From Paramecium tetraurelia (lineage: Eukaryota): DNA of 20,000 bases. The notes beneath the pieces were generated by a model. That model did no database searches. It worked only from the letters and a program-made list of their open reading frames with translations, and was not told the origin of the DNA. The position numbers and the translations under genes are program-made. The stretch covers positions 617,332 to 637,331 of the forward strand of contig CT868063.1 in assembly GCA_000165425.1 (NCBI GenBank), in the 5' to 3' direction. Shown piece after piece: positions 1 through 20,000 of the stretch (position 1 is its first letter; each line of letters begins with the position of its first letter).

Positions 1-1
1 A

Positions 2-298
2 GTGGTTATTGCAGACAGAGTCGTCTCATCTCATTTTGATTGTTTCATGATTGCATAATAAGTTCATTAAGGAACTGCTACTCCAACACATTATACAGTT
101 TTAGAAAATACCACTAATTGGAAAGAAGAATTATTTTGGAAATTTACATATTATTAATGTTATAATTATAAAAACTGGTGTGGACCAATCAAAATACTTG
201 CTTGTGTTTAGAATGCTCACACAGCTGCATACAGAACAGGGGAGGTTATCTAAGATAACGCATGTTCTTCTTTAGAATCAAAGCTATTTTATCTATGA
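2..298 (+). CDS. Piwi-clade Argonaute, C-terminal PIWI domain (5'-partial)
   Basis: Ciliate-code translation: VVIADRVVSSHFDCFMIAQQVHQGTATPTHYTVLENTTNWKEELFWKFTYYQCYNYKNWCGPIKILACVQNAHTAAYRTGEVIQDNACSSLESKLFYL*. It contains the QGT..PTHY, Y.NW.G.I...A..Q.AH and terminal LFYL motifs of Piwi proteins. TGA at 296-298. Which Ptiwi paralog cannot be assigned. Confidence 0.95.
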
Positions 299-379
299 GT
301 TTCTTTATTATTTTATTTTCATTTAATTTATAAATTTTAACTTCAAATATATTAATACACTTATTATCTAATATACTAC

Positions 380-1471
380 TCAAATATTTAATGACAATGC
401 TTATTAGGACATTTCAGAAAAACTATCAATGGAGATTTTAGCCAAACCATTAATTCCCCAAGTGTCTCCCCAAGTATTCTCAATGATCCAATACTATTAT
501 CCATTGTGTTCACCCCATCCTATTATTTTAACTGCTTGACCCCCATGAAAATGAGGCTACCCATCTAATACTTAATAAATTCCATCTTTATAGATTAAAA
601 AATCTTTGTAAACTGGCATAATCGCAACCGCTGGTCCTTTCATTAAAATATCCCTTTTGATATCCTATGATATGAATATTAGTACATCTTTATTCTATAA
701 TTAACAATAGGACTCAGCTTTAAATCGCTAACAATGATCAAGGGCATTGGTACACTCTTTAAATGTATCATCCCCTCTAAAAGGATGACATTCGTTTGTA
801 GTCAATCCATGTTTTATGATATAATCAGCTGATCTTGTTAAATGTCCTCCTTTGCATCCCAAATTTAATTTGCCATCACAAGACAATAAATTTTGAGCAG
901 ATAATTATTAGGTTTAATTTTATTTGCATACTCTGTCTGAGAATGAAGAAGAAACCGCAATAGAATAAGATGATGAACAATTTCCTTAATTATAAACTTG
1001 ATGATTGCACTATGGATAGAATTCTTTGAAGTTGTAATATACAGGTATTTCTTCGATAAAAGACAATTTGCATTTCTCTACATTTATTTATTATGTGAAA
1101 TCATTTTTAAATAAGGTTTTTGCTTACATTAACGTGATATTCTATTGTAATTATAATAATTAAAACATAGAAAAAAGCATTTGGGCCTAAGTTGTATGAA
1201 TGGCCTTACGAATTGTGTGACTTAATTTCAGATTCATTAATGATAATGTATTCTTTTGTTTACTTGGTAAAAGATAAATAAGAAATAATTAAAAACCCAA
1301 TCACAACTATAGGCTTTTTAGTATTATCTTACTTGATATTATGATATGAATTTTGTAGTTGGTCATAAAATCTGGTTTTGTTGTCCTTTTCTTAATTGCT
1401 GTCTATAAAAGCTTTAGTTTCTCAACTTATTGCTTAGTAGGACAAGGACTCGTTGAACGTGGTCCACGCAT
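380..1471 (-). CDS. Papain-family (C1A, cathepsin B-like) protein with N-terminal signal-anchor, predicted catalytically inactive
   Basis: ATG 1471, TGA 380-382. Introns at 1307-1332, 1142-1166 and 665-685. Motifs: IHIIISIVIGFLIISYLSF (TM), NQGNCSSSYSIAVSSSFSDRVC, LSAQNLLSC, GCKGG, GPAVA, YKDFLIYKDGIY, GGQAVKIIGWG, YWIIENTWGDTWGINGL. Confidence 0.93.
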
Positions 1472-1517
1472 TCTTAATTAATTAATAATTATTTAATCAT
1501 TATTTATCATAATTCAA

Positions 1518-2367
1518 ATGTCATAAGATCAACTGATTCTAGATGATATTTCAGTAATTAAAATTCTTTAAATTAGGACATCATGAGAAGCACAAGAATA
1601 ATTGATAAATATTTAGTTAAGGCTTTACATTGCATCATTAATGATTACCAATAAAATATGGACATAAATGCATTATTAGATAGCCTTAATAATTCTAAGC
1701 ACTTGGTTTGTAACAAGTATTGTTTGTTAGAATCTAAATCTAATCTTCTTAGATATGTAGTTAATACTGAAAATTACAATGTAATATTTATTGTTTAAAA
1801 TAATAAAGAATTACATAAAGATCATAGCCTTCTTGAGTTCCCTTATTTAATAATAAGAATTGAAGTCCATTTCCTAATTAAAATAAACTCATAAACCTAA
1901 TTGTATCCTTATCTAACCCAAAAAGACCAAGAATGTTCAAAATGACAAATCTCCGAAAAAATGTTTCGATATTAAACCTAAATATTTTCATTCCAAATCT
2001 TAGACCTGGATTTTTAATTCTAAATAGTACATTTCAAAAATATTAGTAATAAAAGTAACTCAATAATTTCAACTAGGACAGAGAATTATCAAAATTACAA
2101 CAATTGCAAACCCAACATGATGATTACTCTAGATATCGTTCATGGTCTATTCAGTAATAAGAATTACAATAAGAAAATAAATAAAGATTCAATTATCAGC
2201 AGAGATCAAGCAGAGAATTAAGATTTTCTATAACTACTTCTACATCGCCAAAATAAAAAAGTTAAATTCTACCCTAAACTAATAAGGAACATGATTATTC
2301 TATACAAGTAAAAAGGTTAAAAAACGAAATCTCATAGTTAGAATCAAAATTAAAACTTTATAATTGA
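1518..2367 (+). CDS. Hypothetical protein with C-terminal coiled-coil-like segment
   Basis: ATG 1518. An open frame results with GT-AG introns 1554-1576, 1781-1808 and 2055-2076 (third donor uncertain). MSQDQLILDDISDIMRSTRIIDKYLVKALHCII...VKRLKNEISQLESKLKLYN*. No family recognised. Confidence 0.6.
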
Positions 2368-2391
2368 ATTTTAAACTTATAATAAAATACT

Positions 2392-2934
2392 TCAAAAATT
2401 ATTTTTTTAATAATTACTCTTAGTTGTAAATTATTAATATTGATTCTAATTGTCTTTGAGAGAAAATTCTGTATTTAATCTAGTCGAAAAACTAGTTTTA
2501 GATTTTTTCTTTTGAATTTCTATTTTTTCCAATGTTTCATTTAATTCCTAAATCTATTCTTCCTTCTTTTTACACTCCAAACATTAATGTACAACAGGTA
2601 AAATGATTGGCTGCGAATTTTAGCGATAATGTTTTAAATCAAGTACTTTAGTTTCTATGTTACTAATTAAATTTGATAATTAAGTAGGTTCAATATGACT
2701 TTAGATTAAAGATATCTAATTTAAATTGAATTTGATCTTTTGTTCATCACTAAGTTGATTCCAAACTTATTGATATTTGTATTATAAGTTTTTATATTGT
2801 ATCTCTTATACTTATAAATTATCCATTAAACTATTTGATAACTTTGTGAGTTTTTAAATTTCTTATATCAACTATTCTAATTTACTCATCAAATGAGGGA
2901 TTAGTTTATTTGTTGAAATTGATAGTTGTTGCAT
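2392..2934 (-). CDS. Hypothetical 180-aa coiled-coil protein with a CxxC motif
   Basis: Intronless ORF in the ciliate code: MQQLSISTNKLIPHLMSKLEQLIQEIQKLTKLS...HQCLECKKKEEQIQELNETLEK...KNNF*. Heptad-like L/I pattern. Confidence 0.65.
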
Positions 2935-3367
2935 TTTAAATAATTAACCGTAATAAATTTTTAATCTAATTACTTACTTGTATATAAATGTAATTAACTA
3001 CAATTACTGTATTTTGAATATTTTTTCATTCACAACAATCTTGTACAATTTTGATATTATTATTGATTTAATTCATTATCTTAATTATATCATTAAAATC
3101 ACGATATTCACAATCCACTTTAGTTGAAAATCAAAAATAACCTCTAAATAATGCTCAAATAAAGGCGGAATAAAAAGTGATTTAGTGTTAACTTTGAGAA
3201 TAGCCATATTCTCTAAGAAATAACTAATAATAATTTCCTTAATTTGAATTCAGTTTCTATAAGTAAAAGCTCACTCGACGTTTAATTTATATTGGTAACT
3301 ATAATATCACATGAATTATTTAAAGCTAAATAGATATTATGAGAATATTTGTTAATAAAAATTAAAA

Positions 3368-3769
3368 ATGGATAATTAAAAGAAGTGTCTTTTTGAAAAA
3401 TTTGGAGGAGACCAATAAGTTTCAGAACTCATTGATCAATTCTATTATAAAGTTTTGTTTGATAAGCTACTTCGAGACAAATTTTTGAAGGCTGACATGA
3501 GTCGAGTTCGATATCAACAAAAACGATTTTTCGCTTAAATGATGGGTGATACTAATACCTAATACACTGGAAGGTATTTTATTTGGTTTAATAATTATAG
3601 AGATTTAATAGAGGTTCATAAAAATCTCAATATCACAAACTAATAATTTGATAAATTTAAAACCCATCTCAAAAATATTGCATTAGACATGGAAATACCA
3701 AATGTAGACTTAGAAGAGCTACTTCAACATGTTGAAAAACATAGAGACCTTATTGTATTCTAAAAATGA
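3368..3769 (+). CDS. Group I truncated (2/2) hemoglobin, 124 aa
   Basis: MDNQKKCLFEKFGGDQQVSELIDQFYYKVLFDKLLRDKFLKADMSRVRYQQKRFFAQMMGDTNTQYTGRDLIEVHKNLNITNQQFDKFKTHLKNIALDMEIPNVDLEELLQHVEKHRDLIVFQK*. Shows the LFE..GG start, B9-B10 FY, CD1 Phe, YTGR and proximal His (EVH). One intron at 3574-3600. Confidence 0.95.
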
Positions 3770-4715
3770 TAAAAAGATTTTGCGATTGGTTATTGTATTA
3801 TATTCTTTTCTAAATTGCATCATTTACGATATCATTTTATATAATCTGAAATATAAATAATACAAAAAGTTAATTATTACAAATTATCAACTAACAGAAA
3901 TAATTTGGATGAAAATGAATATATACTAATGCAAATAGAATTAGTTTTACATTGCATTATATTATATTGAATTAAAATCCAATTATAACTGTTATTTTTA
4001 CTTTAACCTTTTTTGACTTATGGTATTAGAATCTAAAGTTATTTACTAAAAGGATTAAGTTTTTAGATATTATATTCTAAGTATTGAATTTATTTAAATT
4101 TAAAAGCTAAGATTACTTTATTCGACGATAGATTGTAACTTTACCTTAGAGTTAGTGAAAAATATACTTGAACAGAAGTTTCATTGATTTAAGAATCTAC
4201 TTTGTCTTCAAAATGATAAAAAATATGATTTCTTTAGAAATGAAGATTCGGCAGCTCTAAAGTAAAATGATTGTTTTATTCTGTTAAATAAAATAAGGTT
4301 TTTGTTTTATAAAAAGCTAACCATTTATCCAAACTCCTATTCTAATCAATGTTGATTCAGTTTTTTAGTATTTGATTTTATTAGTTTTTTTCTTAACTAA
4401 TTTATCAAAAAAAATATATTAATAAATTTAAAAATACGAATAAACAATCCATATAAATCTAATACATTAATTCTGGTAAATAAGAATAAACGAATTTTGT
4501 GACTATCCAAGAACTAGTAGATGTAGAATAAGATGAGAAATCAATTCATTTTCCCAATCCATTTTTTGATATAAATTTAACAAATTTATTTAGTCGAAAT
4601 TGTTGAAAAAAACTTAACAATTTAGTAATTGATTTTTGAGGATAGCTAAGTTTATAAAAATGAATAATTTAATTTGTATATAAGATTTATTGGTATCGTA
4701 TAAATCAAATTAAAA

Positions 4716-7700
4716 TCATTTTAACAGTTGTTCTTCCTCTTTATTCCTAAAATATTATACTACATTAGTAAGATTAAACGTGTTTTTTAATTATTTCTGT
4801 TACTATGCTTATTTTATAACCTATAAGAATGTCATTCCAGTTGATTTTTTGTTAGGTTGAGGCTTAATAAGATAAAATCTGTACCATAGTAAGAATAGGT
4901 TGAACAACAATCGTGTTGAGTTGCTCTTCTAATAATTTTTCTTCTTATTAAGGCGTTATTTTTTCAGTATTATCCTCCTCTAAATCTGGGTTTGGTTGTT
5001 TAATTACTTGACCATAGGTTTTTTACATGCACTTATCAAAATCAGAAAGATCATCAGATTCACGAAATTATGCCTTTATAATCTCGCCCAATCTAATATA
5101 AATGAGGAATGTTAGTGCATCTAATTTCTTAAACAGGGGTTATTGTCTTCTATCATCAATTGTGATCTAATCATTAGTTCTTATCAAAGATAATTTTTCA
5201 GCACACCTAGCTAAAGCCTCTAAGAATTCATAAAATTCCATTTAGAAATGTTTAAGTAAGTAAAGTTCATCAACTGATGTCTACATAGCCAGCAAGTATG
5301 CAAGATAAGCATCTCTTTCAACAAAAATATCACAATACAAATCGCATTTGTTTAATAAATCTCTGAAATCTTTAAATTAAAGCCATATGTGTTTATAATA
5401 CTTTTATTTAGAATTTAATTTTGATGTGTATTTGAATAGTAATTTTAACATTGGCAATCTATCTTCTAATAGAATATTTAAATAATGAATTACTTAATAA
5501 AATGTCACATTATTCATTCCAATATCTCATGTCCCTCCAATCTTGACTACGGTCAATTTCTTATAGTTTTTATTTGATTCCATCTTCTTCAAACATTTTT
5601 CTCAAACTCTCTTTAATTGTTTTGCAAATTTATGTTCTCAAATATTTATCAATAGCAATTCTAACTAATACTTCCATTAGCTGGTATCTTACTAGAGCTT
5701 TCTCGTAAACATTAGGATAATTGATATCTTTAACATTTGAAGTGGCAATAAAATTTAAATCAATATCCCCAGATCTAAATTTTTCAGAAATAACTCCTGT
5801 TGTTGATAAAAAATCAGAGAAGGCATTAGATGAAATACAAGGAATCGTGGCCCCGATAAGAGTAGATGCTAAAAATTTATAAGCTGCAAAAATGTAAGGA
5901 TAATACTCTCTCATAATTTCTTTGACTTCATTATATTCAATTGGATCTTTAATAATTTTATTAATTTTTGAACTTCCATAATCATATTCAAAGCATTCAT
6001 CAATTAATTCATCATTATCAGGTTAATAGTTTTTAAAAATAGAAATTTCATAACTCCAAAATTTTTCAGTTTTTGTAAGAAATTAAGTTAAATCAAAAGT
6101 CTTTTCTTCTTCTCTTGGTTTGCTAAAGATTTTCGCAAAATATCTATCCATAATTGATTACTTATCATCCGTAAATAATTCATTGACAAATCCCATTTTA
6201 TTTCCTTCAATTAAGATATCTCCATTATATAAAAATGATTGTTTAGTTGAATATAAAGGGTCATCCTGAGGAGTTTAAGTAATTAACTAATTTTTAGCTG
6301 TAGTTTAAATTCCAAGCACAGGATTGCTAAAAAAATAAGTGACTTTGAAATTTGGAGGACACATTCTATAAACAGAATATTCTCCATTATGAAGTGTCAT
6401 TAGAACTGGTTTGTAATTTTCAAAATTTAAGTGTACAAATATTGGATCGTTGTTCATTCCACCTGATTTACCAGGAGTCCAAGTGAATTTCACTTCCTAC
6501 CACCCATCACATATCCAACAAGCATCTAATTCACTATCAGTATCATAATTTTATTTGATTGGCTTCATTCCTTAAATTCTTCGAAATCGAAAATTTCTAT
6601 ATAATTCTGAATCAGTTTTTAGATCTTTTATTCTTTTTTTTTAATACTATTAGTGTTATTGTTGTTCTTATATCTGTATTTCTGGACTTTAATAATCATC
6701 TACTAATTTTAAAGTTGTTTATGGGTTTTTTTAACACTCTTCGATTTTTCTTTGAATATCTGTAGCTTCTTAAATTCTATCTCTTAAGTGTCCAGTAGAA
6801 TCAACTGAATATTTTGGGCAATTCCCTTAATAATGAAATCCATATATATTCTAATTTTATTCTAATGCTTTTTTAATTTCGATTGATTATTCCTCATTAA
6901 AACCATTATATGAAATGTCTATATGCATAAGTTCTGGATACTATTTAATAATAACTTTGGCCATTTATTAAGAACATTCTATAGAGGCTGTTCGGTTATA
7001 TGAAATATCAAAGACCTTGACGCTAGAATTTTTATACAATGCTTTCCAAATATTAACAGCTCCAACACTATTTATTGAATTAAAATGAAGATATAATTCA
7101 AATAGAACTTGTGTTTTCTTTAGATAGTTGGCCAGTTCAACACAACAATGCTCTGTTAAATTATTTTTAGATAAATTTAAATATAACAAATAATCGTGAT
7201 CTTGAACTGCCTAACATAATGCATTACTTCCTATGTCACCTATTCGATTGTTTTCTAAATTAACTTTCTTTATTTATGAGTTTTAAATATATTTTGATAA
7301 CAATTAGCAAGATTTTGAATCTAATCCATTATTCATTAAATCTAATTCCTACAAATGTTATGGGAATGACTTAGTCAATTGTTAAATTCTAATAAAATAT
7401 GTTAATTGGTGAATACTTTAATGAATTCAGTTTATTGTGGTTCAACTTCAGATGTGTTAAAGTCTTACATTATTAAGTCTTGAGTGCATCAGAAAATACT
7501 TTAACTTATTAAGGGGATCTTATTTGTGCTTATGCATTGGCTAGTTGAATGTGGTTGCATTATTATACTAGTCCTAGACCGCTTTAAAATATTTGCTATT
7601 GGTGCGAGCTTTTATTCAATTGCATATACAAATTTGGAGTTTATTTATAAAATTGAGCATAATCATCCAATTTGTTAAATTGTTTGATGGTCTTTCTGAA

Positions 7701-8495
7701 ATCTTCTTAAGAGACTTTATTCAAATTTTTACTAATATAAAATAATATCAGCTTATTACTTTGCTAATCGAAATTTCCTCAAATATTTACCTCTATCTGT
7801 ATGTAATTCTTGATTGATATCTCCTTTATATTCTAGTTATTACATATATAGCTATTTTTATTCATCATATCTTTAATTATTCTTAAGATGAGATGGGTTA
7901 GATTTATGATGATGATGTTGATGCTTTTTAATTAAATTCATTCTTTGAGGACTGTAATCTTGATATGAAAACTATTTCATCGAGTTTGCGTGTGCCTCAT
8001 CATTTTGTCTTTCAATTTCTAATTAATCATTCTCCATCATAACATCATACTATTCGGGTTTGTAATTATCAATTAATTCTCTAATCATTTTATCTTCCTC
8101 TTATTCATTTAATCTCTCTAGAATACTCTTTTAGGGAGGCTGAGGAGTTGATATTCTATTGATAGTTATAATATTGAAACTGTTAACGGATGGGTATTTC
8201 AGTCATTCTTGTTATGTTCTAGTATCTTTCAAATGTGAGTGGCATTTTAATTTTTTCGATATCCATAATGCATTAAACTTTAGGAGATGTTGATAATCTA
8301 TTTAAACTATTCAAAGTTGTTCTTTATGATTAAGATGTCGAAACTAAATTATTTTCTCAAAATTTACATACAAGTTCTTTTAACCTTTTCTTTCATAGGT
8401 GTGTTCTTTTTCATCTCCTCCTCTTTCTTGATTTCTTTCAATCTTTCCAAAAGCTTCTCTTTTGTATTGAATATTTTTAGTTTCTCAAATAACAT
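4716..8495 (-). CDS. Large leucine-rich repeat (RNI-like) multidomain protein with C-terminal EF-hand-like region
   Basis: ATG 8495, TGA 4716-4718. Introns at 8344-8371, 8156-8180, 7732-7759, 7389-7416 and 5466-5493. LRRs: LTHLKLNHNKL, LQELDLMNNGL, IRKLNLENNRIGDIG, LLYLNLSKNNL, LFELYLHFNSI, VKVFDISYN, LMHIDISYNGF. The model links three ORF-track fragments (6968-7189, 6305-6493, 5630-5914). C-terminal MEFYEFLEALARCAE. Confidence 0.88.
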
Positions 8496-8532
8496 AATTT
8501 AATTGTTATTTTTAATATAATCGATTTCAACC

Positions 8533-9701
8533 ATGAATTCAAACTTCTTACCAAGATTTCGATACATGGATCAACTACAAAGATGTAAATCATACTAATA
8601 TGAAAGTCATATAAATCACAAGAAATACATCAAAATCAGAGCTAATCTCATTTAATACTTAATACAAAAGTTTATATAAGATAAAACCTATTACCTACTA
8701 ACTTCCTGGCTTCTACAATTACATAAAATAAGAAATTGTAATCATTTTTCTCATATAGATTTAAGGAGACATAGAATCTTTAAACAAGGCATCCACTCAC
8801 TATTTCAGCAAGGAAGGCAAACTTATTAGACCGATGTTAAATTTATTATATGCCAATCATATTGAAAAAAACAGTTAACATACAGAATAGTAAAGAATCT
8901 GGGCTGCAGTGATAGAAATTCTACATGTAGCCAGTCTAGTTCATGATGACATCTTAGATGCATCAGATACAAGAAGGGGAATCCCTTCATCTCACACAAT
9001 ATTTGGCAAACACAGAGCTACATTTTCAGCTAACTATTTAATTGGAAGAGCGTAATAATAATTATAAAAATATTAGTGGTCGAAAAATTTCTGAATTAGA
9101 TGACATCAGAATGTTCCAAATCTATTCACAAATTATGGACAACTTAACTAATGGTGAATATTTATAAGCTATGAAATAAAAGAGTTTTCATAACTTTGAG
9201 ATCACTCTTCAAAATTACATGATTAAAACCTATTACAAGACAGCAGCATTGATTGCGAATAGTTTATAAGGAGTGTGCTAGTTAACCAACATTAAAGATG
9301 AAATTTGTGAAAAATCATTCAACATTGGGTTGCATTTGGGCGTTGCCTTCTAAATAATTGATGATGTCTTAGATTATACTTCAAACTCTGAATAATTGGG
9401 TAAAGCTAGTTTAAATGACCTAAAGAGTGGTGTTTTGACTGGACCCGTTTTATTTGAATTATTCAATTAGTAAAAAAAGCAATCCCCAGAATACAAACTT
9501 ATGAACTCAGTTCTATTAGGCGAGTCTAATTAGTACGATACTGTTAATTAAATTGTTTTGGCTGGAGAAGGAATTGAGTAAAGCAAATATTTAGCTTATT
9601 AACACACCTAAGAGGCGTTGAAAATATTATAAAGCATCAATTCCTAACCAGATTAAGATTTAATTTCTTTGATCTTCATGTTCATTGACAGAAATAAATG
9701 A
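8533..9701 (+). CDS. COQ1: Long-chain trans-polyprenyl diphosphate synthase (COQ1/PDSS1-like, ubiquinone side chain)
   Basis: Introns at 8585-8606, 8738-8758 and 9052-9076. Motifs GKLIRP, EILHVASLVHDDILD..DTRRG (FARM), GEYLQ, KTYYKTA, FQIIDDVLD (SARM) and LGK...NDLKSG..TGP. Ala five residues before the FARM fits a long-chain product. The Arg-containing N-terminus is compatible with a mitochondrial presequence. Confidence 0.92.
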
Positions 9702-10669
9702 TAATAACAAGATAAATTTTATAGGATATTTATATAATTGCAAAATTATAGTAGAACATTTTTAATCTAAATTAAATTTTTTTTACACAATAAAGAATTA
9801 GGTGCTCTGTGTTAATCTAAACAAAAATATTAAATAATTTTAATAAAACTTTAATTGAAGAATAAAGTTTGTTTATGTGTATCTACTTACTTTGATTTTT
9901 AAATCTTCATAGTTTTCAATTTTGCTATTCTTACTTTTTATATTACTATTTTAAATTTTAACACAATATTTCTTTGCTGAGATTTCGAATCCCGCAAATT
10001 TAAGCACTTCATCAGTGTTATTGTTCATTACCGAATTCCATATCTCTAAAGGTATTAAAAGCAAAACCACAAATATTTCATAATTAAGAAATTTTCTTAA
10101 AATTTAGATTCTCTTCATTCTAAATTATAAACATACAAAATGCTTCTATCCATAGATTTGTTATATTATATATTTCATAAAAGAGAATTTATATACATCT
10201 CATCTAAAATTTTCAATATTATTCGATATCAAAAAAGTTAATGTTTTATTTCATTCAATAAATAAATAGTTGTAAAATTTAGAAAAATAGATTTATTGAT
10301 TTCATTACTCAATTTGAAAGATCTAATGTCCTAAAAATGCGCTAAAAACGAAGTGTAATTTCACTTCTATTTTTAAATTTTGATAGCTAGCAGAATTTAA
10401 TCTTATTTTTAAAAATAATCGAAAAAATTAATCTTTGGTTTAACGTTGATTATTAAAGAATTTAAACAATAAAAAAATATTTTATTTTAATTAAAATATT
10501 AAAATAGTGTATATTATTTCTATTTTTTTTATGTTACCTATGACTTTTTACTCAATTAATCTTACAGATTTAACTTATATGTTATAATCAGTATATTCTA
10601 TTTGTTTTAAATGAATTATGACTTTTTTCTCAATTTAAATTTGAGATTTAACTGAAATAAAAATTCAGT

Positions 10670-11351
10670 NNNNNNNNNNNNNNNNNNNNNNNNNNNNNNN
10701 NNNNNNNNNNNNNNNNNNNNNNNNNNNNNNNNNNNNNNNNNNNNNNNNNNNNNNNNNNNNNNNNNNNNNNNNNNNNNNNNNNNNNNNNNNNNNNNNNNNN
10801 NNNNNNNNNNNNNNNNNNNNNNNNNNNNNNNNNNNNNNNNNNNNNNNNNNNNNNNNNNNNNNNNNNNNNNNNNNNNNNNNNNNNNNNNNNNNNNNNNNNN
10901 NNNNNNNNNNNNNNNNNNNNNNNNNNNNNNNNNNNNNNNNNNNNNNNNNNNNNNNNNNNNNNNNNNNNNNNNNNNNNNNNNNNNNNNNNNNNNNNNNNNN
11001 NNNNNNNNNNNNNNNNNNNNNNNNNNNNNNNNNNNNNNNNNNNNNNNNNNNNNNNNNNNNNNNNNNNNNNNNNNNNNNNNNNNNNNNNNNNNNNNNNNNN
11101 NNNNNNNNNNNNNNNNNNNNNNNNNNNNNNNNNNNNNNNNNNNNNNNNNNNNNNNNNNNNNNNNNNNNNNNNNNNNNNNNNNNNNNNNNNNNNNNNNNNN
11201 NNNNNNNNNNNNNNNNNNNNNNNNNNNNNNNNNNNNNNNNNNNNNNNNNNNNNNNNNNNNNNNNNNNNNNNNNNNNNNNNNNNNNNNNNNNNNNNNNNNN
11301 NNNNNNNNNNNNNNNNNNNNNNNNNNNNNNNNNNNNNNNNNNNNNNNNNNN
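10670..11351. other. Assembly gap (N run)
   Basis: 682 N characters. It hides the 3' end of the WD40 gene. Confidence 1.
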
Positions 11352-12480
11352 NTTTTTGTTGATCAATAATTATTTGGAATTAATGAATTGTTTAGGGAAC
11401 AACCAATCACATCCATTACCACTTTTTACTTAAATTTATTTTGATAAATAAAATTATTGATTTTTCTAATTCAATTCATAAACTTACATCTCCAAACTCT
11501 TCATAGGTTGAACACTAAAACTTTAATTATTCAAAAAACATACTCTGTAGCCAACTTATTGAATCACTTACACCAAAACCCATGTATTATTGTTTTGACA
11601 TTAACTAACAAAGATTCGATCATCTTATGCAGCACAAGAAATCAATTAATTTTAACTTTAATTCAAACTTAAACTTCTCAGTCGACCACTATGATATGTT
11701 AAAGTCTAAGAATGGTTCCATAAACTTGATTTTACCCAAAATTTTATAGATTTATCATCACTCCCACTAATAATTAAATTAGCAGTATTATTGATAATCA
11801 TACATACTACCCAATCTGAATGAGCAACTAATTTTTATTATGCTTGCCAATTTGATTTGTCTTTCATAATCCAAATAATAATAGACATGTCCTTACTACC
11901 AGAAATAAATGACATTTATTTTTTCATAAAATTTAAACAAGTAATCATATTTCTATGTTCTTTCAGCTATTAAATTAATTTTAAGAATCCCAACTTAAAT
12001 TCATAAACATTTACTTCACCATTACAATATCCAGCTATCATAATCGCAGAATCAGAACTAAACGCAATTGCTTTACATTCACTTTCCTTAAAAGAATTGA
12101 TTAATTCATATCTCTTACTTGAAATCAAAATTTTGGCATCAATTAATGCTTTTTAATTACTCTCAATTTATAAGAGGGCACTTTAAGTTTAAGTTACATT
12201 TTGAATAGTTGTAAGTTGGTAGTTATATCTCATTTAATCAGTCAATTATATTTAATTTTAGCATAATTAACGTATTTGAATCTAATTTGCTTCTATTTCT
12301 GCTTAAATTGTGTCATCAATAATCAGATGATAATTTTTATTATTTATGACTTTGGCGATTGATAATATATCATCAGTTGTCATCCCTGACCAATCTTTTT
12401 GTATTAAATATTATGTTTTTTTCTGAATTTCATCCATTCTATCTTCATTTGGTTCAAACTCCCCTGTATCAACCTATGGT
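11352..12480 (-). CDS. WD40-repeat protein (expanded Paramecium-type family), partial between gaps
   Basis: Uninterrupted frame: ...CKAIAFSSDSAIMIAG...KEHRNMITCLNFMKKQMSFISGSKDMSIIIW...AHSDWVVCMIINNTANLIISGSDDKSIKFW...YHSGRLRSLSLNQSQNQLISC...GYRVCFL...CDWLFPKQFINSKQLLINK. Confidence 0.9.
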
Positions 12481-13274
12481 NNNNNNNNNNNNNNNNNNNN
12501 NNNNNNNNNNNNNNNNNNNNNNNNNNNNNNNNNNNNNNNNNNNNNNNNNNNNNNNNNNNNNNNNNNNNNNNNNNNNNNNNNNNNNNNNNNNNNNNNNNNN
12601 NNNNNNNNNNNNNNNNNNNNNNNNNNNNNNNNNNNNNNNNNNNNNNNNNNNNNNNNNNNNNNNNNNNNNNNNNNNNNNNNNNNNNNNNNNNNNNNNNNNN
12701 NNNNNNNNNNNNNNNNNNNNNNNNNNNNNNNNNNNNNNNNNNNNNNNNNNNNNNNNNNNNNNNNNNNNNNNNNNNNNNNNNNNNNNNNNNNNNNNNNNNN
12801 NNNNNNNNNNNNNNNNNNNNNNNNNNNNNNNNNNNNNNNNNNNNNNNNNNNNNNNNNNNNNNNNNNNNNNNNNNNNNNNNNNNNNNNNNNNNNNNNNNNN
12901 NNNNNNNNNNNNNNNNNNNNNNNNNNNNNNNNNNNNNNNNNNNNNNNNNNNNNNNNNNNNNNNNNNNNNNNNNNNNNNNNNNNNNNNNNNNNNNNNNNNN
13001 NNNNNNNNNNNNNNNNNNNNNNNNNNNNNNNNNNNNNNNNNNNNNNNNNNNNNNNNNNNNNNNNNNNNNNNNNNNNNNNNNNNNNNNNNNNNNNNNNNNN
13101 NNNNNNNNNNNNNNNNNNNNNNNNNNNNNNNNNNNNNNNNNNNNNNNNNNNNNNNNNNNNNNNNNNNNNNNNNNNNNNNNNNNNNNNNNNNNNNNNNNNN
13201 NNNNNNNNNNNNNNNNNNNNNNNNNNNNNNNNNNNNNNNNNNNNNNNNNNNNNNNNNNNNNNNNNNNNNNNNNN
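12481..13274. other. Assembly gap (N run)
   Basis: 794 N characters. Confidence 1.
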
Positions 13275-13955
13275 CATGCACCCTAAATGATATTGACCCT
13301 CTTAGTCAATGTTAACAATATCAATTTAAAGTTCATGAATCTGGCATCTATAGTTTCTAATTAATAATTTCTCCTTCTCTTACATGAAGAAATCTTTAAT
13401 TTATTCTAATGAGTTTGTATTATATTACAATCTAATTTCCTTTAGAAATTATTATTGTTATTCTCAAAAAGAGAGAACCTACATTGGCATTAATGAACAA
13501 GCAATTGTCTCTTTTATTGATTCATAATCTACCATTTCTTCAAAAAATATCTCAATATCATAATTCTCATAAATGAATCTAGATAATGCTTCTCTAGTTT
13601 TCTATTCCAAGAATTTATCAACCGTAATTATAACTTAAATCTGTTTATTGATCTCTTATATGTTTCCCTCAATATATTAAGATAGTTAAGATTAAAATTA
13701 AAACATCTATTCCTTTAATTTGAGAAGTAGTTCTAGGTTTTTAGAATTCATTATTTTTCCTTCTCCTAATATAACCTATTCATGCTTATGAATAAAAGAT
13801 TCAGCCTCTTTGATCAGCAATAAATTATGTGGATATTCAATTTTTTCAATGCACTTCTAGCAATATAATTTCCGTTGATTCCCTAACTTTCCTCTCTCTA
13901 AATAAATAGCTTGTTCATTATGTTACACACATTAATTATTGTGATTAACTTACAT
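13275..13955 (-). pseudogene. Probable 5' part of the WD40 gene (B-box-like Cys/His motifs plus coiled coil) with an in-frame TGA
   Basis: ATG 13955. MQVNHNNQCVQHNEQAIYL...KLYCQKCIEK...MQVLSF*EQQQQFLKEIRLQ...RCQIHELQIDIVNIDQEGQYHLGCM. TGA at 13464-13466 and the same frame continues afterwards. The link to the WD40 part across the gap is inferred. Confidence 0.6.
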
Positions 13956-15693
13956 AATAATTGGAAAAAATTTTAATAAATTATTAGATACACAAATGTA
14001 TAATATCTAAAATATATCTGAAAACAGAATTCATCAAATTTGCTGATTAGATATATCCAAGATTAATACTCAACTTTTCGAGAATCTCTTCAATATTTAT
14101 TAGAATATCATATCTAGCAACTATAGACACTAAAATAATAAATTCTTAGTGTATTCTGTTCTCAAAATAATAACTATTGAGTAAATTTAAATTAATATAA
14201 ATACAATTTCAGAGATCTAAGAATTTTTGTTGTGTAGAAAATTATTATGTGTTGATCTTATGTTATAAAAATATAACTTCAATATTACAATAGATGGACA
14301 CGACAACAATTGCAAATTGATGAAATGATTTGGTAAGTTATTTATTTCGGCAAGGTAATCAGACCCAAAATAATATAATTTACATTTCAAATAATAAGAT
14401 TGTATACATCATTAATAGAAAGATTACCTATTCGTTCTCAATTTTATATATTATCAGAACATTAAACGAATAAATTTATTAAGATGAAAAAAATTAATAC
14501 AAAAACAATATAGAATCAATTGATATCCAAATAGTTTAATGAATTTAAAAATTTACTCTCTTAATATTATTTAATTGAAATGAAGTGGATATTGATGATA
14601 CCATTGCTTTATGAGTGTATTTGTTTGATTTAGATCTATAATTTTGATGCTAGCCTATTGGTTTAAGATGGTATCAATTTTTAATAGTTATGAAGATTGG
14701 ATTATAAATAATGGAATAGGATCAATATTCTCAATCTGCAATTCATAAAATATTTTAGGAGGATTTAATAACTTTGGAGTTAGTACTTCAGTTACTAGAT
14801 TCTTTGGTAATTTAGATTCTCATTATGAATTGAAAATAGAGATGGAATTTTGGAGGTAGGCTTAATAATTATCTGTAGGATTGATAGATGGGGTTTTGAT
14901 CAATTAAAGATAGTTGTCGATGATGATTTGTAATTTTAACAAACATATCGAACAATGGGATCAGCACCTGATTATTGTGGTGGTGGGGGATATGATGATT
15001 AATATGAATTAATATCATTCAAGTTTCCTCATAAGAGAAAAACTGCTTGGGTTTATATTTATGTAAATTATAATACTGATTTTAACGTAATTATAATAAT
15101 TATTAATAGTAATCGTGGGGTTTTAGAACCTTTAAGATGAGTATAGAATAATGTCCTTAAGGATGTGGTATGTGTTCTAGTAATGATTATCCATAGTGTT
15201 TGAGATGGCATTATTAAGAATCCTTTTTTTCCCAAAAATTAATTTTAGGATAGGAATAGTGGGACGGAGAAGGATTTCCTTTATCATAATATCAATCAAT
15301 ACAATGCGCTAATTGCAATTACAAACAAGGAATGAGATTTCATCGAGAAATAGGTTTGGTTAATCATCTAGAAATGCGTTTAAGGTTTTATAGATAAGAC
15401 ACTAATAATATAAGAGTATCCTCAAATGGAATATGAAAATTCTATTATGTACAATCAGAACAGATTTGTAGAATTTGAAATTTTGGGAAAAGATGGAGGA
15501 ATAAGTGAGATATGTTTAGAAACCCTTTAATCAGAATTAAGAATTTAGGGATATTGAATTATATTATGCGGAATCTGAGAACTATGATATTATTCCATTT
15601 CATCCAGGCTGTGATTAATTTATTAATTCGAAATGTATTTCTTGTATTGATGGATGGATTTATGACCAAAAGGGAGAGAAGTGCTATTCAGAT

Positions 15694-16400
15694 TGTGGTG
15701 ATAAAGTAATTTAATTCTTAGAAGAATGTGATGATGGAAATGAGATACCTTATGATGGATGTTTTGAATGAAAATTCTAATGTGACGAGAATTGTTNNNN
15801 NNNNNNNNNNNNNNNNNNNNNNNNNNNNNNNNNNNNNNNNNNNNNNNNNNNNNNNNNNATTATCATATCAGATGAAGAATGCGATGATGGTAATTTAATA
15901 CCATTTGATGGTTGTTTTGAATGCAAATATTAATGTATTGATGGTTGTCATATATGTTACTAAGGAGAATGTCTATTAAGATGTGGGGAAGGATTTGAAT
16001 TTTAAGCTGATAGATGTTTATCAGTTTGTGGTGATCTTATTGTGACAAACGAAGAGTAATGCGATGATGGTAATATAATACCATTTGATGGTTGTTATGA
16101 ATGTTAAATCCAATGTCAAATAGGTCATGAATATATTAATTAGCAATGTGTATCCATTTGTGGAGACAGGATTACCTCAAATAATGAAGACTGCGATGAT
16201 GGAAATTCAATAGAATTCGATGGATGTCATTTATGTAAATACTCTTGTCCTTTGAATTGTCAAATTTGTTATTAGGGAGAATGTATTGTTTGTGATAATC
16301 ATTATGAATTAATCGATTCAGGACAGTGTTAAATATAGAATTTGATAAACGATCTTCAATGTAATGATTATAATGATTTTCCAAATGATGGCTGTTACAA
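15694..16400 (+). repeat. Tandem coding Cys-rich repeats
   Basis: At least four E.CDDGN....DGC units plus a degenerate fifth (QCNDYNDFPNDGC). 15881-15923 and 16061-16103 match at 41 of 43 nt and lie 180 nt apart. Confidence 0.9.
15797..15858. other. Assembly gap (N run) inside the Cys-rich repeat array
   Basis: 62 N characters. The true repeat number is unknown. Confidence 1.
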
Positions 16401-18759
16401 TTCTTAAATTGAATAACATTGGATATGTTAAACTATCTCTCAAATCAGCGAATGCACTTATTCATTAAACCCTTAAATAATCGTCACTTATCTTAACATG
16501 GCCTCAAATATTTAATATGTTAAGATCTCGTTTAACTAAGAAGTCAAGATACTAACCGATATATTACTATCTTAGAGTATCAAAACTCAAATACTGGAAG
16601 TCTCCAGTGATGACTAAATTATTAACGTTCAAATAATCTATGAGGCTGGTCATTAAATTGCTTTTGTTGAATATATATTAGAAATAGAAATCTTCAAACT
16701 CTTAGATTTTAAACCTATATTAGAAATTACATTAAATCAATAAGTTGTTAACATAAATGAGGTTGCTATAAATCCCAATTCATATTATTTAACATTAAAA
16801 AATCCAACTTACCTGGATGAATTACAATCTGATTTGGCTTAGAAGTTACTACAAATTAATAAATCCATAATCTATTCTCTAGGAGCAATTGGTCTAATGT
16901 CTTTGCTTTTGGGATTCTCCTCTATATTTTTAAATATACTTACTGTTTTACAATACTATTCATATTTAAGGTACATCAACCTTGAATTCCCTTCAAATCT
17001 AATGATCTATTTTGAAATTGGAGATCTATTAACTATGCAACCTTTATTAGATGTCATTCATTTTCAGGACCTATTGAATTTTTTTTCAGATGATCAATCA
17101 TTTTAACAATCATATGGGAAATTTTAGTTTTATAAATTAAATGCCGATCTACTTTAAAATATTCAAACCTAGATGTTACAATTCTTATTGATGGGATTAC
17201 TTTTTATAATACCACTAAATTACTTCAAAAGGATCGTCTATTATAAAATATTTACCTAATCATTTTTTGAGAAAATTTCTTGCAAATAATTACAAAAAAA
17301 AGATTGTATATTTAAATTTTACAAAATATTTTACACATTTATGAAAAGATTGATTTCTTGGGATGATCTATTGACTTATCAAGGTTTCCGATAGATATTA
17401 ATAATAAATGGATGGGATTTGGTTTTTAAAACACTGTTATTTATTCAATCTGCAAACGCTTTGAACTTTAAAGACATTATTTAAATTATTTTGGCATTAC
17501 TAATTCTATTTACCTATTTTTTAATTATCATTCAATCTTGCAATTAATCATAAAGTAAAAATTAACGTCTGCTAAATCTACTATTCGGGGACAAATTTGA
17601 AATATTTAATCTAATCAGAATCATCTATTTTTTTGTAATATTAATATTCTGTTAGAGAGAAAAAATTATTTAAATCATAATGATTTCATCCTCTTGCCTA
17701 TTTTCATTGACTCTTATTTATTGTTATCGTGATACTTTTGAGAATAAAAATTTAATTGTGCAATTAGTTATTGAAATAATCGTATTCATTTTTACATTAA
17801 CCTCAATTATATATATTCAAGAGTTTTCAATGGGAGAAGAACTAAAAATTATTTTTGGTTGGTTTCATATAGCCATACTTTCAATTGGTACCATAGTATA
17901 ATTTCTAGTGATAATATATGAAAAACTTAAAAAAGCATCTAATATCGAAAGTTTGTCAGATAAAAAATTGAAGTAACATAAGAATAATTCCCATTTAATT
18001 TTACATGAAGCAAGCAAACGTATTGTAATACAATAATCATGAAACATATTTCTAATTTATAATTTATAAATTTATTATTAAAGATATAGACTTTTTAGTT
18101 TATTCACTCATCCCCTAAATATTTTATCAATTATGGATTTTTAAATTGCAAATTATTCTCCTGCGAACTAAGTATTTGGTTTGTATTTTAACATTGAGTT
18201 TAGTCATTGTTCAATTTAATAGTAGGAATATAAAAAGTCTAAAAATAAATTTAATTTAGAAAATATATGGTTTAATTTCTCCTACGGATGACCGATAATT
18301 TTCTTTACCCTTATACCATTAGGATAATTATAACCATCATTTCACATTAATTGATAAATATATCAACTTGGAATTCATATTGGAAATGTGAAAGACTTTA
18401 GGCTTCTTCCACAAATATACCTTGATAATCACTTTTATATTTTTATTGAATGTTTATTGACACATATTCTTTTTGGTAGGCAACAACTAAGAAATTTAAA
18501 TGTCATTTGATTTAATGATGATATTAGTTTTTTTTTAATTCCAACTAATATGTTTGAATACAAATTATATTCAAGTTAAAATGGTTTTACCTTATTTTCA
18601 AAATAGATAAATATTTCTAATGTAAATTATAATTCTATGAAAGATTCAAAAAAAATTCCATTATCCCCACTGATTCATCCTTCGAAATTTAGATTGACAA
18701 TAACTTGCCAATCTTCCATAGAATGGATTTATCTCCTTCATCATTCTTTCAACATTAAA

Positions 18760-20000
18760 TCATAAGTTGATTAATTTTATTAATTATTCTTGTTTTTGCT
18801 TAGAATTTAATTGCTCACATTTGAAAACAATAAGCCTTCTGATTCTCTTGGATATCCTATCGATTTGGTTCTTCATGCTCATTTGTTTTTCGAGTAAAAC
18901 TTCTGTTCAATTCCTTTTATATTTCATGATTTTTTCCAGTTTTTCCACCCAGTTACCATCCTCTTCTCATAGGATCTAACATATGGTTCCAGGTCAAGTT
19001 CATACAATTTGTTTTACATATCCTCTAACTGAGTTTGAACGATTCAAAGTACTTGTAATCAGGAATTCTTGTGATTTTCTGGCAATTGTCTCTCTTCTTT
19101 TTTTACTCTCTTTTTTTATTTGATTGGTCCTCTCTTCCATTTATAGTTTCTTTTCCTTCTGATTTTCATAGTTCCTTAGATTAAATGGAAGTTTAAAAGA
19201 CTTAAAAATTTTCCTATATTTCAAGGATTTTTGAGGCACATCTTTAATGAATTTGTTGCTCAACAAGAAGTAAATGTACAGATTAATATATCGCTATTCC
19301 GACATATCCTGTGAATCATATTCATAGAATGTTTTCTGAATAGGTTAGTTTCCAATTACCTTTAATATAACCATTTTCCTTGATGTCAAATTTCAGTCTC
19401 CTTATCAAATTTATCAAAGATTTGTCAGGTTGACTTTAGAGGGTGGTCTCTTCATCTGTTCCATTTGAAATTTTATGCTCACTCTAACAATCTTCTAAAT
19501 CTCTAAGTATTTGAATCTCTCAACTCTCTTAATTCCAATTCTTTTTAACTCATCATCAGAACTAAAAGCAATATACATGATCTTTTTAGATTTAATTTAA
19601 GGCCGAAGTCTTTTTTTGCTCTTATGAAATCATCAGCAAATAATTTTGCAATTTTTTATCTAGTTCAGAATACAATATCGTCTGCATCAGCAAGGATTTC
19701 GGTTTCTTCAAACATCTTTTCGATTTTCCCCTTTTTTGAGGTAATTTCTCAATCTCTTCCTACATTATTGTATCATAAGTTTGTATCACATGGTCAAAGA
19801 AGATATTGAACAGGAATGGATTTTAAATAGATCCTTATTGTACCCCACTATTGAACCTGATCGTTTCTTTTGTTATTGGTTCAATAATATATAAGTCCTC
19901 ATTCACAAGAAAAAGAATCCAACAAAGATTCTTTTATCCCTTTTCTCATAGTTTTTACATTAAATTTCCTCTATGAACTTGAGATCCTAGTTTTTGAGCG
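18760..20000 (-). mobile_element. Decayed non-LTR (LINE-like) retrotransposon, RT domain and C-terminal region, 5'-partial
   Basis: RT motifs in correct order on the minus strand: QVHRGNLMQKL, IRFNSGVQQGSIQNPFLFNIFFD (GVQQGS at 19829-19846), ILADADDIVF (19671-19691, YADD remnant), FGLKLN and IKRVERFKYLEI (about 19500-19530, YLG remnant). There are frameshifts and TGAs (19946-19948, 19665-19667). The left boundary is approximate. Confidence 0.88.

Follow-up and report, generated by a model that had tools for sequence, protein, structure and literature searches.

Does the right-hand end of a Paramecium tetraurelia contig hold a retrotransposon, and if so, of what kind, and how does it come to stand in DNA of the somatic type? 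The window analysed here is a stretch of 20,000 nucleotides from contig CT868063.1 (positions 617,332 to 637,331 of the forward strand; coordinates below are those of the window). An original prediction, made from the letters of the sequence, had placed a fossil reverse transcriptase (RT) like that of long interspersed nuclear elements (LINEs) on the minus strand at the right end. It supposed that this copy either escapes elimination from the macronucleus (MAC) or is kept in part of the macronuclear molecules. We found that the locus as a whole is best explained as the dead 3' portion of an old non-long-terminal-repeat (non-LTR) LINE retrotransposon of the type described as Group 4, lying in somatic-type DNA. 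We put the probability of this reading at roughly 0.8.

We found four RT motifs in the relic. The minus strand of 18600-20000 was translated in three frames with table 6 (the ciliate code). Motifs B, C, D and E lay on one strand and in the correct order, as predicted, and were spread over the three frames. The codons around the QG motif read GTA CAA TAA GGA. The TAA (19837-19835, minus) adjoins the Gly codon and occupies the place of the conserved Gln, which had also been foreseen. The relic is single-copy within 13300-20000 (repeat search) and continues beyond the window edge at 20000; an Rfam search gave 0 matches. Its parts are listed in Table 1. At the 3' end, Tandem Repeats Finder reported no tandem array at 18750-18800, and the TTA-phased decayed stretch there was seen by eye only.

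Table 1. Parts of the relic and the neighbouring host gene (positions in the window; ORF, open reading frame; UTR, untranslated region).
Feature	Position	Strand	Basis
Entire visible relic: Group-4-like non-LTR retrotransposon ORF2, 3' part with RT, C-terminal region and tail	18750..20000	-	Translation, RT similarity, hand alignment to Group 4 ORF2 consensus proteins (PMC5405496 supplement)
RT fingers region ..KLGSQVH.. (consensus ..SKLGTQVHI..), then in-path TGA 19948-19946	19951..19999	-	Translation, hand alignment
Internal deletion junction, ~31-33 codons relative to Group 4 consensus; motif A (FFDLSDAYN, catalytic Asp) gone	19925..19930	-	Hand alignment
RT motif B SGVQQGSIQNPFLFNI; Gln of QG motif is TAA 19837-19835	19802..19849	-	Translation; Pfam RVT_1 over piece residues 27-59; phmmer
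First frameshift (loss of one base), from ..LPQKRGKSKR to ..FEETEILADADD (consensus LPKKQKRRKRW-IEDGEILAYADD)	19710..19716	-	Translation, hand alignment
RT motif C LADADDIV; DADD 19688-19677 (YADD to DADD)	19671..19694	-	Translation, hand alignment
RT motif D GLKLNLKRS (consensus FELKVNIKKTKY / FKLKTNLKKTKY); second frameshift ~19578	19578..19604	-	Translation, hand alignment
RT motif E FKYLEI (consensus FRYLGT/V; Gly to Glu)	19498..19517	-	Translation, hand alignment
Second internal deletion junction, ~55-60 codons, thumb region, plus frame change	19430..19449	-	Hand alignment
Post-RT region collinear with consensus (..RLKFDIKENGYI / RQLETNLFRK / FYEY..LYIYFLL..); frame changes ~19363, ~19332 and within 19165-19095	19095..19438	-	Translation, hand alignment; LFRKH and other words present in Group 4 proteins
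Degenerate zinc finger C-KT-N-CMNLTWN-H-MLDP-M at consensus CX2HX7HX4H site; RIPDYKYFESFK before it (consensus RIPGYEFFEPFK)	18968..19020	-	Translation, published finger type (Table S3), hand alignment
ORF2 C-terminus after another frame change (..GNWVEKLEKI..SKRIRRLI..CEQL..); in-path TGA 18909-18907	18784..18967	-	Translation, hand alignment
Short 3' UTR and possible degenerate (TTA)n tail; 3' boundary ±15 nt	18750..18783	-	By-eye comparison with RT36327 consensus 3' end
Neighbouring host gene, convergent with the relic: cysteine-rich DUF4215-repeat membrane protein; start approximate; spans N gap 15797-15858	14700..18042	+	DUF4215 E 9.3e-29; RNA contigs

We found that the closest proteins to the relic are RTs or come from Paramecium. 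The 148-aa first frame piece, with TGA read as X, was compared with 1.84 billion representative proteins using phmmer (E≤0.001). There were three matches, all RT-type or Paramecium. P0002, an Artemia protein with a tandem RVT_1 array (Pfam E 1.3e-136), reached E 2.9e-19 summed over six repeat matches. P0003, the unnamed Paramecium octaurelia protein CAD8215313.1, matched at E 4.2e-7 (44% identity over 63 aa), and P0004, which itself carries RVT_1 at Pfam E 1.4e-5, matched at E 3.1e-4. In the reverse control, these three proteins were compared with all six frames of the window, and significant matches fell only within 19649-19936 on the minus strand. The Pfam results for the relic pieces included no telomerase or maturase family. 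The RT is accordingly of the LINE type, and neither a telomerase RT (TERT) nor a group II maturase: it is most similar to a LINE-type RT array, to a Paramecium relic and to the consensus of a LINE family (below). This much of the original prediction stands.

To which family does the relic belong? Guerin et al. 2017 (PMC5405496) describe 38 non-LTR elements in the P. tetraurelia germline, placed in five groups, and their supplement gives consensus DNA and proteins. As described there, the one ORF of a Group 4 element encodes an APE endonuclease and an RT, with a CX2HX7HX4H finger at the C-terminus; the element has a (TTA)n tail and lacks ORF1. We found that the Group 4 ORF2 (EEP-RVT) consensus lines up with the relic, RT36327 and RT4152 being closest, in about 10 collinear blocks that run from ..SKLGTQVHI.. 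to the last ORF2 residues. Approximately 145 of 345 aligned residues (~40%) are identical over ~1.2 kb; the alignment was made by hand against the supplement text, and the identities were counted by us. The comparison with germline transposable element (TE) consensus sequences, proposed as a check in the original prediction, thus gave a family.

Aligned blocks illustrate the likeness. Around motif B, the relic has ITKETIRFNSGVQQGS.. where Group 4 has ITKKKVRFKNGVQQGS... Around motif C, EILADADDIVF*TRQKIAKLFADDFIRAKKDFGLKLNLKRS stands opposite EILAYADDVVIYTRKEVAKIWADAFIQGAKDFELKVNIKKT. Before the finger, RIPDYKYFESFK stands opposite RIPGYEFFEPFK, and near the C-terminus GNWVEKLEKI and SKRIRRLI..CEQL stand opposite GNWLEKMTKI and AKRIKRLI..CEPF. 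The relic therefore resembles Group 4 (RT36327, RT4152, RT25765 and others; PMC5405496) in the order and sequence of the RT motifs, in the Group-4-specific words GVQQGS and FLFNIFF, in the post-RT ..FDLKEDGYIRRQL..LFRK.., in the block ahead of the finger, in the place of the finger, in the C-terminal ..GNWLEK..KRIKRLI..CEPF and in the use of TAA and TAG as Gln codons. The finger itself is not intact. It reads C-x2-N-x7-H-x4-M at the homologous place (19020-18968), with 2 of the 4 ligands kept.

The other groups fit less well. By hand count, 20/27 and 26/41 residues of two blocks matched Group 4, compared with 14/27 and 13/41 for Group 5. The single Group 1/2 consensus passage compared was clearly more distant than Group 4; for Groups 1-3 the comparison comprised this passage together with two word counts. 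Across the 287-kb TE library file, GVQQGS occurs 8 times and FLFNIFF 4 times; the displayed places (5 and 4, respectively) were all in Group 4 proteins, and the library holds 8 Group 4 consensus proteins, the same number as there are occurrences of GVQQGS. Four exact relic words of 11-13 nt gave 0 matches in the TE consensus file, in which lines are wrapped at 50 nt and from which the relic has diverged. A placement in Groups 1-3, drawn from the 470-nt distance between RT and finger (Table S3), was rejected; the alignment gave Group 4 plus a deletion of ~58 codons.

We found that the reading frame is thoroughly decayed. There are about seven frame changes (~19712, 19578, 19440, 19363, 19332, within 19165-19095, and 18968) and three in-path TGA codons (19948-19946, 19667-19665 and 18909-18907). 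At the second of these TGA codons, just after motif C, the consensus sequences have Cys, Phe, Ile or Tyr. At the end of the frame, TAA 18786-18784 occupies the site of the consensus TGA stop (hand alignment). Relative to the Group 4 consensus, the relic has lost ~31-33 codons at ~19928, including motif A with its catalytic Asp, and ~55-60 thumb codons at ~19440. Key motifs also carry substitutions (Y to D in YADD, G to E in FRYLG). The relic thus has neither the motif A with catalytic Asp nor the open frame of an active enzyme. It cannot encode an enzyme and is without function of its own, because of the motif A and thumb deletions, the ~7 frameshifts, the three TGA codons and the Y to D change. 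In this it differs from the Group 4 elements, as it does in its ~40% identity, its degenerate finger and tail, and its place: the published copies were assembled from germline contigs, and the relic, known from its 3' part, lies in somatic-type DNA.

The original prediction had concluded that the element evolved under the ciliate code, from the TAA at the QG motif. The conclusion holds, but that argument does not carry it. In a dead gene, a lone TAA in place of a conserved Gln is thin evidence, since one transition turns CAA into TAA. The RT path contains TAA or TAG and TGA codons in a ratio of 7:2, which is uninformative because it is near the expectation from base composition for AT-rich DNA (~3.7:1 by our rough estimate); a consensus Gln stands opposite only 2 of the 7 TAA/TAG codons. 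The consensus itself is the better witness. In the RT36327 consensus DNA (PMC5405496), VQQG is written GTT TAA CAA GGA, and TAG stands for Gln in ..PKKQKRR... Judged by these consensus sequences, the family of the relic is written in the ciliate code, because Group 4 itself uses TAA and TAG for Gln.

We found that the DNA around the relic is of the somatic type and that the relic is reproducibly present in bulk DNA. The window reads in table 6 and is Paramecium-like. Its host genes encode a papain-type protease, a leucine-rich repeat protein, a polyprenyl synthase, a WD40 protein and a DUF4215 cysteine-rich membrane protein; the relic lies 0.7 kb downstream of the last of these, which is expressed. 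Approximately 8.9 kb of coding ORFs are uninterrupted, without an internal eliminated sequence (IES). The published IES density is ~0.4-1 per kb (PMC5405496, PMC8354472), and by our Poisson estimate a germline copy would be expected to have ~5 IESs in ~8.9 kb (P(0) < 0.01). Three short interruptions, of 21, 21 and 25 nt, are the only ones that RNA contigs skip and DNA contigs keep. These are introns at 664, 8738 and 9052; the one at 9052 reads GTAATAATAATTATAAAAATATTAG.

DNA contigs from two sequencing runs (X1 and X13) were collinear with the window. They contained no IES-like joint and no joint skipping the relic or any gene piece of 26 nt or more, with the limit that contigs can miss rare forms. 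In the contigs of these runs the relic is not bounded by the precise TA-bounded excision junction of an IES. Sampled words of 16000-20000 were present to at least one half in 16 of 24 listed runs, and 11 of these 16 (share at least 0.94) belong to 6 studies that are not flagged as possible sources of the window. Runs from at least 6 independent studies contain 0.94-0.99 of the words of this region. Runs X21-X24, with a share of 0.00, were left out of the contig comparison and do not count as evidence. No X1 or X13 DNA contig was placed on 19344-20000, though both runs contain 0.99 of the sampled words; such a hole carries no weight as evidence. We conclude, as the original prediction did, that the host DNA is of the somatic type, because there is no IES in ~8.9 kb of coding sequence, the DNA contigs are collinear and the region is present in the runs of many studies.

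Is the relic kept in all macronuclear copies, or in some? We found a step in contig depth to its left. The depths are per-contig word depths of assembled contigs, which by the tool's own warning are neither copy numbers nor shares of cells. For X13, depth was 25.5-30.1 for the five listed contigs on 1-10669 and 14.1 for one 8,677-nt contig on 11353-18615. For X1, it was 165-205 for eight listed left-hand contigs, compared with 6-47 for summed right-hand bins, except for one repeat bin (104). The step thus spans the N gap at 10670-11352 in two DNA runs of different studies, and all three N gaps (3/3) are at or to the right of it. Across this gap the depth falls from 25.5 to 14.1 in X13 and from about 170-205 to about 20 in X1. 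The right-hand X13 contig extends 1,839 nt to the left of 11353, and the left-hand one extends 143 nt to the right of 10669. These overhangs indicate that the true gap is longer than 683 N, or that a branch point lies inside it.

A step of this kind has a published counterpart. Sellis et al. 2021 (PMC8354472) describe MAC-variable regions as DNA of low coverage, typically at scaffold ends, that variable rearrangement leaves in a fraction of the MAC copies, and 9.2 Mb of 'variable MAC-destined' DNA is reported for P. tetraurelia (PMC13085455). The segment described here is similar to such regions in that it bears genes, has a depth below that of the adjacent DNA, has assembly gaps and contains TE-derived sequence. 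It differs in the kind of evidence: MAC-variable regions were defined by MAC read depth, scaffold extremity and telomere-addition sites, and here there are contig word depths of two runs. On balance we favor, by a modest degree, the notion that the relic-bearing segment, from 11353 rightwards, is a MAC-variable region, kept in a fraction of macronuclear copies by alternative or imprecise elimination. Of the two fates first proposed for the relic, its presence in somatic-type DNA is borne out, and for partial retention there is the hint from contig depth.

In at least one condition the relic probably gives rise to non-coding RNA. RNA run X17 contained unspliced contigs over 18834-19160 (depth 18.7) and 19235-19546 (depth 7.0), both letter-identical to the DNA, and a further contig with a variant at 19895. 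In this run, depths over the relic were no lower than over the genes nearby. In X17 the intron at 664 was spliced and 14 of 30 window bins were without cover. This makes carry-over of bulk DNA unlikely.

Several results weigh against the interpretation given so far. Pfam RVT_1 on the best (first) piece reached E 0.0054 and 16.9 bits, below the 29.6-bit cut-off; the expected hit to an RT hidden Markov model fell short, and it was the phmmer matches to RT proteins that were significant. Pfam was silent on the motif C-E pieces, on the 66-aa motif B read-through (19800-19999) and on the later ORFs, and two pieces compared with PDB chains by phmmer found no RT. The motif C/D piece aligned with P0002 by BLASTP at a non-significant E of 0.21 and with the wrong ADD. 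The family call was made by hand, with few comparisons to Groups 1-3 and 5 of 8 GVQQGS places shown. For partial retention, contig depths do not give copy number, no joint skipping the relic was seen, and a pattern search of the window for telomere repeats gave 0 matches; none of the 24 loose contig ends shown, of 359, was telomeric. Lastly, RNA from the relic was seen in one library, which has a different organism label (B), and a second RNA-like run, X20, had nothing on the relic.

Other searches and a discarded alignment belong beside these. Word-index searches with the first frame piece, the aligned piece and the 116-aa C-terminal ORF gave no matches, which is weak evidence by the tool's own account, and the third frame piece (frame C) had no BLASTP match to P0002. 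The BLASTP pairing of the second ADD (KLFADD) with motif C was rejected. Its 8-aa spacing to GLKLN is wrong, and the Group 4 consensus settles the matter.

Could the motifs be a chance cluster in AT-rich non-coding DNA? The sub-threshold Pfam score and the empty PDB and word-index searches are what would be expected of one. However, phmmer E values down to 2.9e-19, a sole locus in the six-frame control and ~1.2 kb of collinearity with Group 4 through finger and stop refute this idea, to which we give practically no weight. A working or domesticated RT gene (or a TERT or group II maturase gene), whose frameshifts would be tiny introns or assembly errors, might be suggested by the partial cover with RNA contigs, by the 20-30-nt introns of Paramecium and by 1-nt assembly differences elsewhere in the window (9759 and 9777). 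We consider it very improbable. Motif A is deleted, DADD stands for YADD and three TGA codons lie in the path. Furthermore, the two RNA contigs over the relic are unspliced and identical to the DNA, no intron-sized GT..AG interval was seen at the first frame change, and the closest similarity is to LINE-type RT proteins and the Group 4 consensus, rather than to TERT or maturases.

The remaining alternatives concern the DNA rather than the element. If the window came from a germline assembly (micronuclear or elimination-deficient), the relic might be fully eliminated from normal macronuclei. In favor of this, 92% of TE bases are germline-limited according to PMC5405496, N gaps are typical of fragmented assemblies, and the kind of most runs is not on record. 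But the coding ORFs contain 0 of the ~5 expected IESs, two runs yield DNA contigs collinear with the window, RNA contigs skip only the 21-25-nt introns, and the relic stretch occurs in 16 runs. A germline source is therefore improbable. A possibility to be taken more seriously, if still a doubtful one, is that this dead Group-4-like LINE belongs to the constitutive MAC-destined DNA, present in all macronuclear copies, and that the depth step is an artefact of word depths, strain differences or assembly. Consistent with this are the high word shares (0.94-0.99) in at least 6 independent studies, the expressed genes in the same segment, the fact that contig depth is not copy number, and the 0.62 Mb of LINE in the published MAC-destined compartment (PMC5405496). 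Against it, depth was lower to the right of the gap in two runs of different studies, and the N gaps cluster there.

How might such a relic have come to persist in somatic DNA? The family to which it belongs suggests that an ancestor element inserted into the germline by target-primed reverse transcription. Since then the copy has decayed, as the deletions, frameshifts and TGA codons show. In the maternal-protection (genome scanning) model, a sequence carried by the maternal macronucleus is thereby protected when the next macronucleus forms. The relic may be tolerated in the macronucleus in this way, shielded from RNA-guided elimination by its own presence in the maternal macronucleus. Being far diverged from active germline copies, it would also have few exact small-RNA targets in common with them.

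A more elaborate scheme would give the relic a part in the partial retention of its surroundings. It would stand at the edge of a partly retained, gene-bearing segment of at least 9 kb, and it would be transcribed. It might act as a cis-determinant of alternative elimination, with residual targeting of the TE-derived DNA spreading imprecisely into neighbouring genes and retention being inherited epigenetically through maternal transcripts, which would tune the dosage of the WD40 and DUF4215 genes. A P. octaurelia relic with a similar deletion of motif A would then mean that the arrangement is older than the species split or the whole-genome duplication. We think this scheme unlikely.

The P. 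octaurelia relic is part of P0003 (CAD8215313.1). Residues ~100-185 of this protein are a Group-4-like RT relic, and by eye it is without ~27 residues where the relic in the window is without ~33 (the motif A stretch). The two are alike in having a Group-4-like motif B region and, by eye, a similar loss of motif A, and they have derived residues in common (S before GVQQGS, NPF for SPF, FFDH; by eye). P0003 differs in being an annotated 287-aa protein, with no Pfam family and no alignment to the relic outside the RT stretch. The two may descend from one already-damaged copy, as orthologues or ohnologues.

The original prediction had treated a retroelement retained in somatic DNA as surprising, and that premise does not hold. 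RT sequences retained in the MAC have already been described (Guerin et al. 2017, PMC5405496), and the relic is like them: a LINE RT-coding relic in Paramecium macronuclear DNA. The same source reports 237,838 bp of TE (8% of TE bases) in DNA with at least 20x MAC depth. By its differential-coverage analysis, TEs make up 1.33% and LINEs 0.84% (0.62 Mb) of the MAC-destined compartment. The phenomenon is thus already known in kind, since both old TE copies in Paramecium somatic DNA and MAC-variable regions have been published, and the finding is ordinary. It is a further example of old, diverged TE copies persisting in Paramecium somatic DNA. Another ciliate offers a partial parallel: the REP non-LTR retrotransposons of Tetrahymena, from work by Fillingham et al. 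in 2004, are likewise ciliate non-LTR elements in the ciliate code, but are reportedly restricted to the germline micronucleus, going by the title of the paper.

Annotators should mask the relic as a Group-4-like LINE fragment, and neither leave it intergenic nor call it a gene; the similar P. octaurelia relic has a protein accession. If the depth step is real, the locus could also be of use for work on imprecise elimination, as a convenient MAC-variable boundary that bears genes and whose far end carries a TE relic.

The comparison of contigs with the window also yielded observations on the assembly. Two gap sizes are wrong, as an X13 contig puts 184 letters in place of 794 N (12481-13274) and 272 letters in place of 62 N (15797-15858). 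Contigs of all four runs, DNA and RNA, pass from 15741 to 15903 through 8 different letters; the place falls within the DUF4215 repeat array (families D1 and D2). The scaffold is probably mis-assembled or collapsed at the DUF4215 repeat and its N gap (15741-15903). One base is absent at 9759 and one at 9777 in both DNA runs, just downstream of the polyprenyl synthase gene; these are likely single-base assembly errors. One X13 contig differs from the window in clusters at 13377-13566 and 15541-15959 (mostly C to T and G to A, some common to RNA run X17), with 17 differing letters over 13275-15796. The clusters could be strain variants or low-quality assembly near gaps. Chance or repeat matches are taken to explain eleven long-range contig joints whose sides measure 20-23 letters. 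Directly after the stop of the DUF4215 gene, at 18048-18079, there is a 7-nt tandem repeat (ATTTATA, 4.4 copies) together with a palindromic AT stretch.

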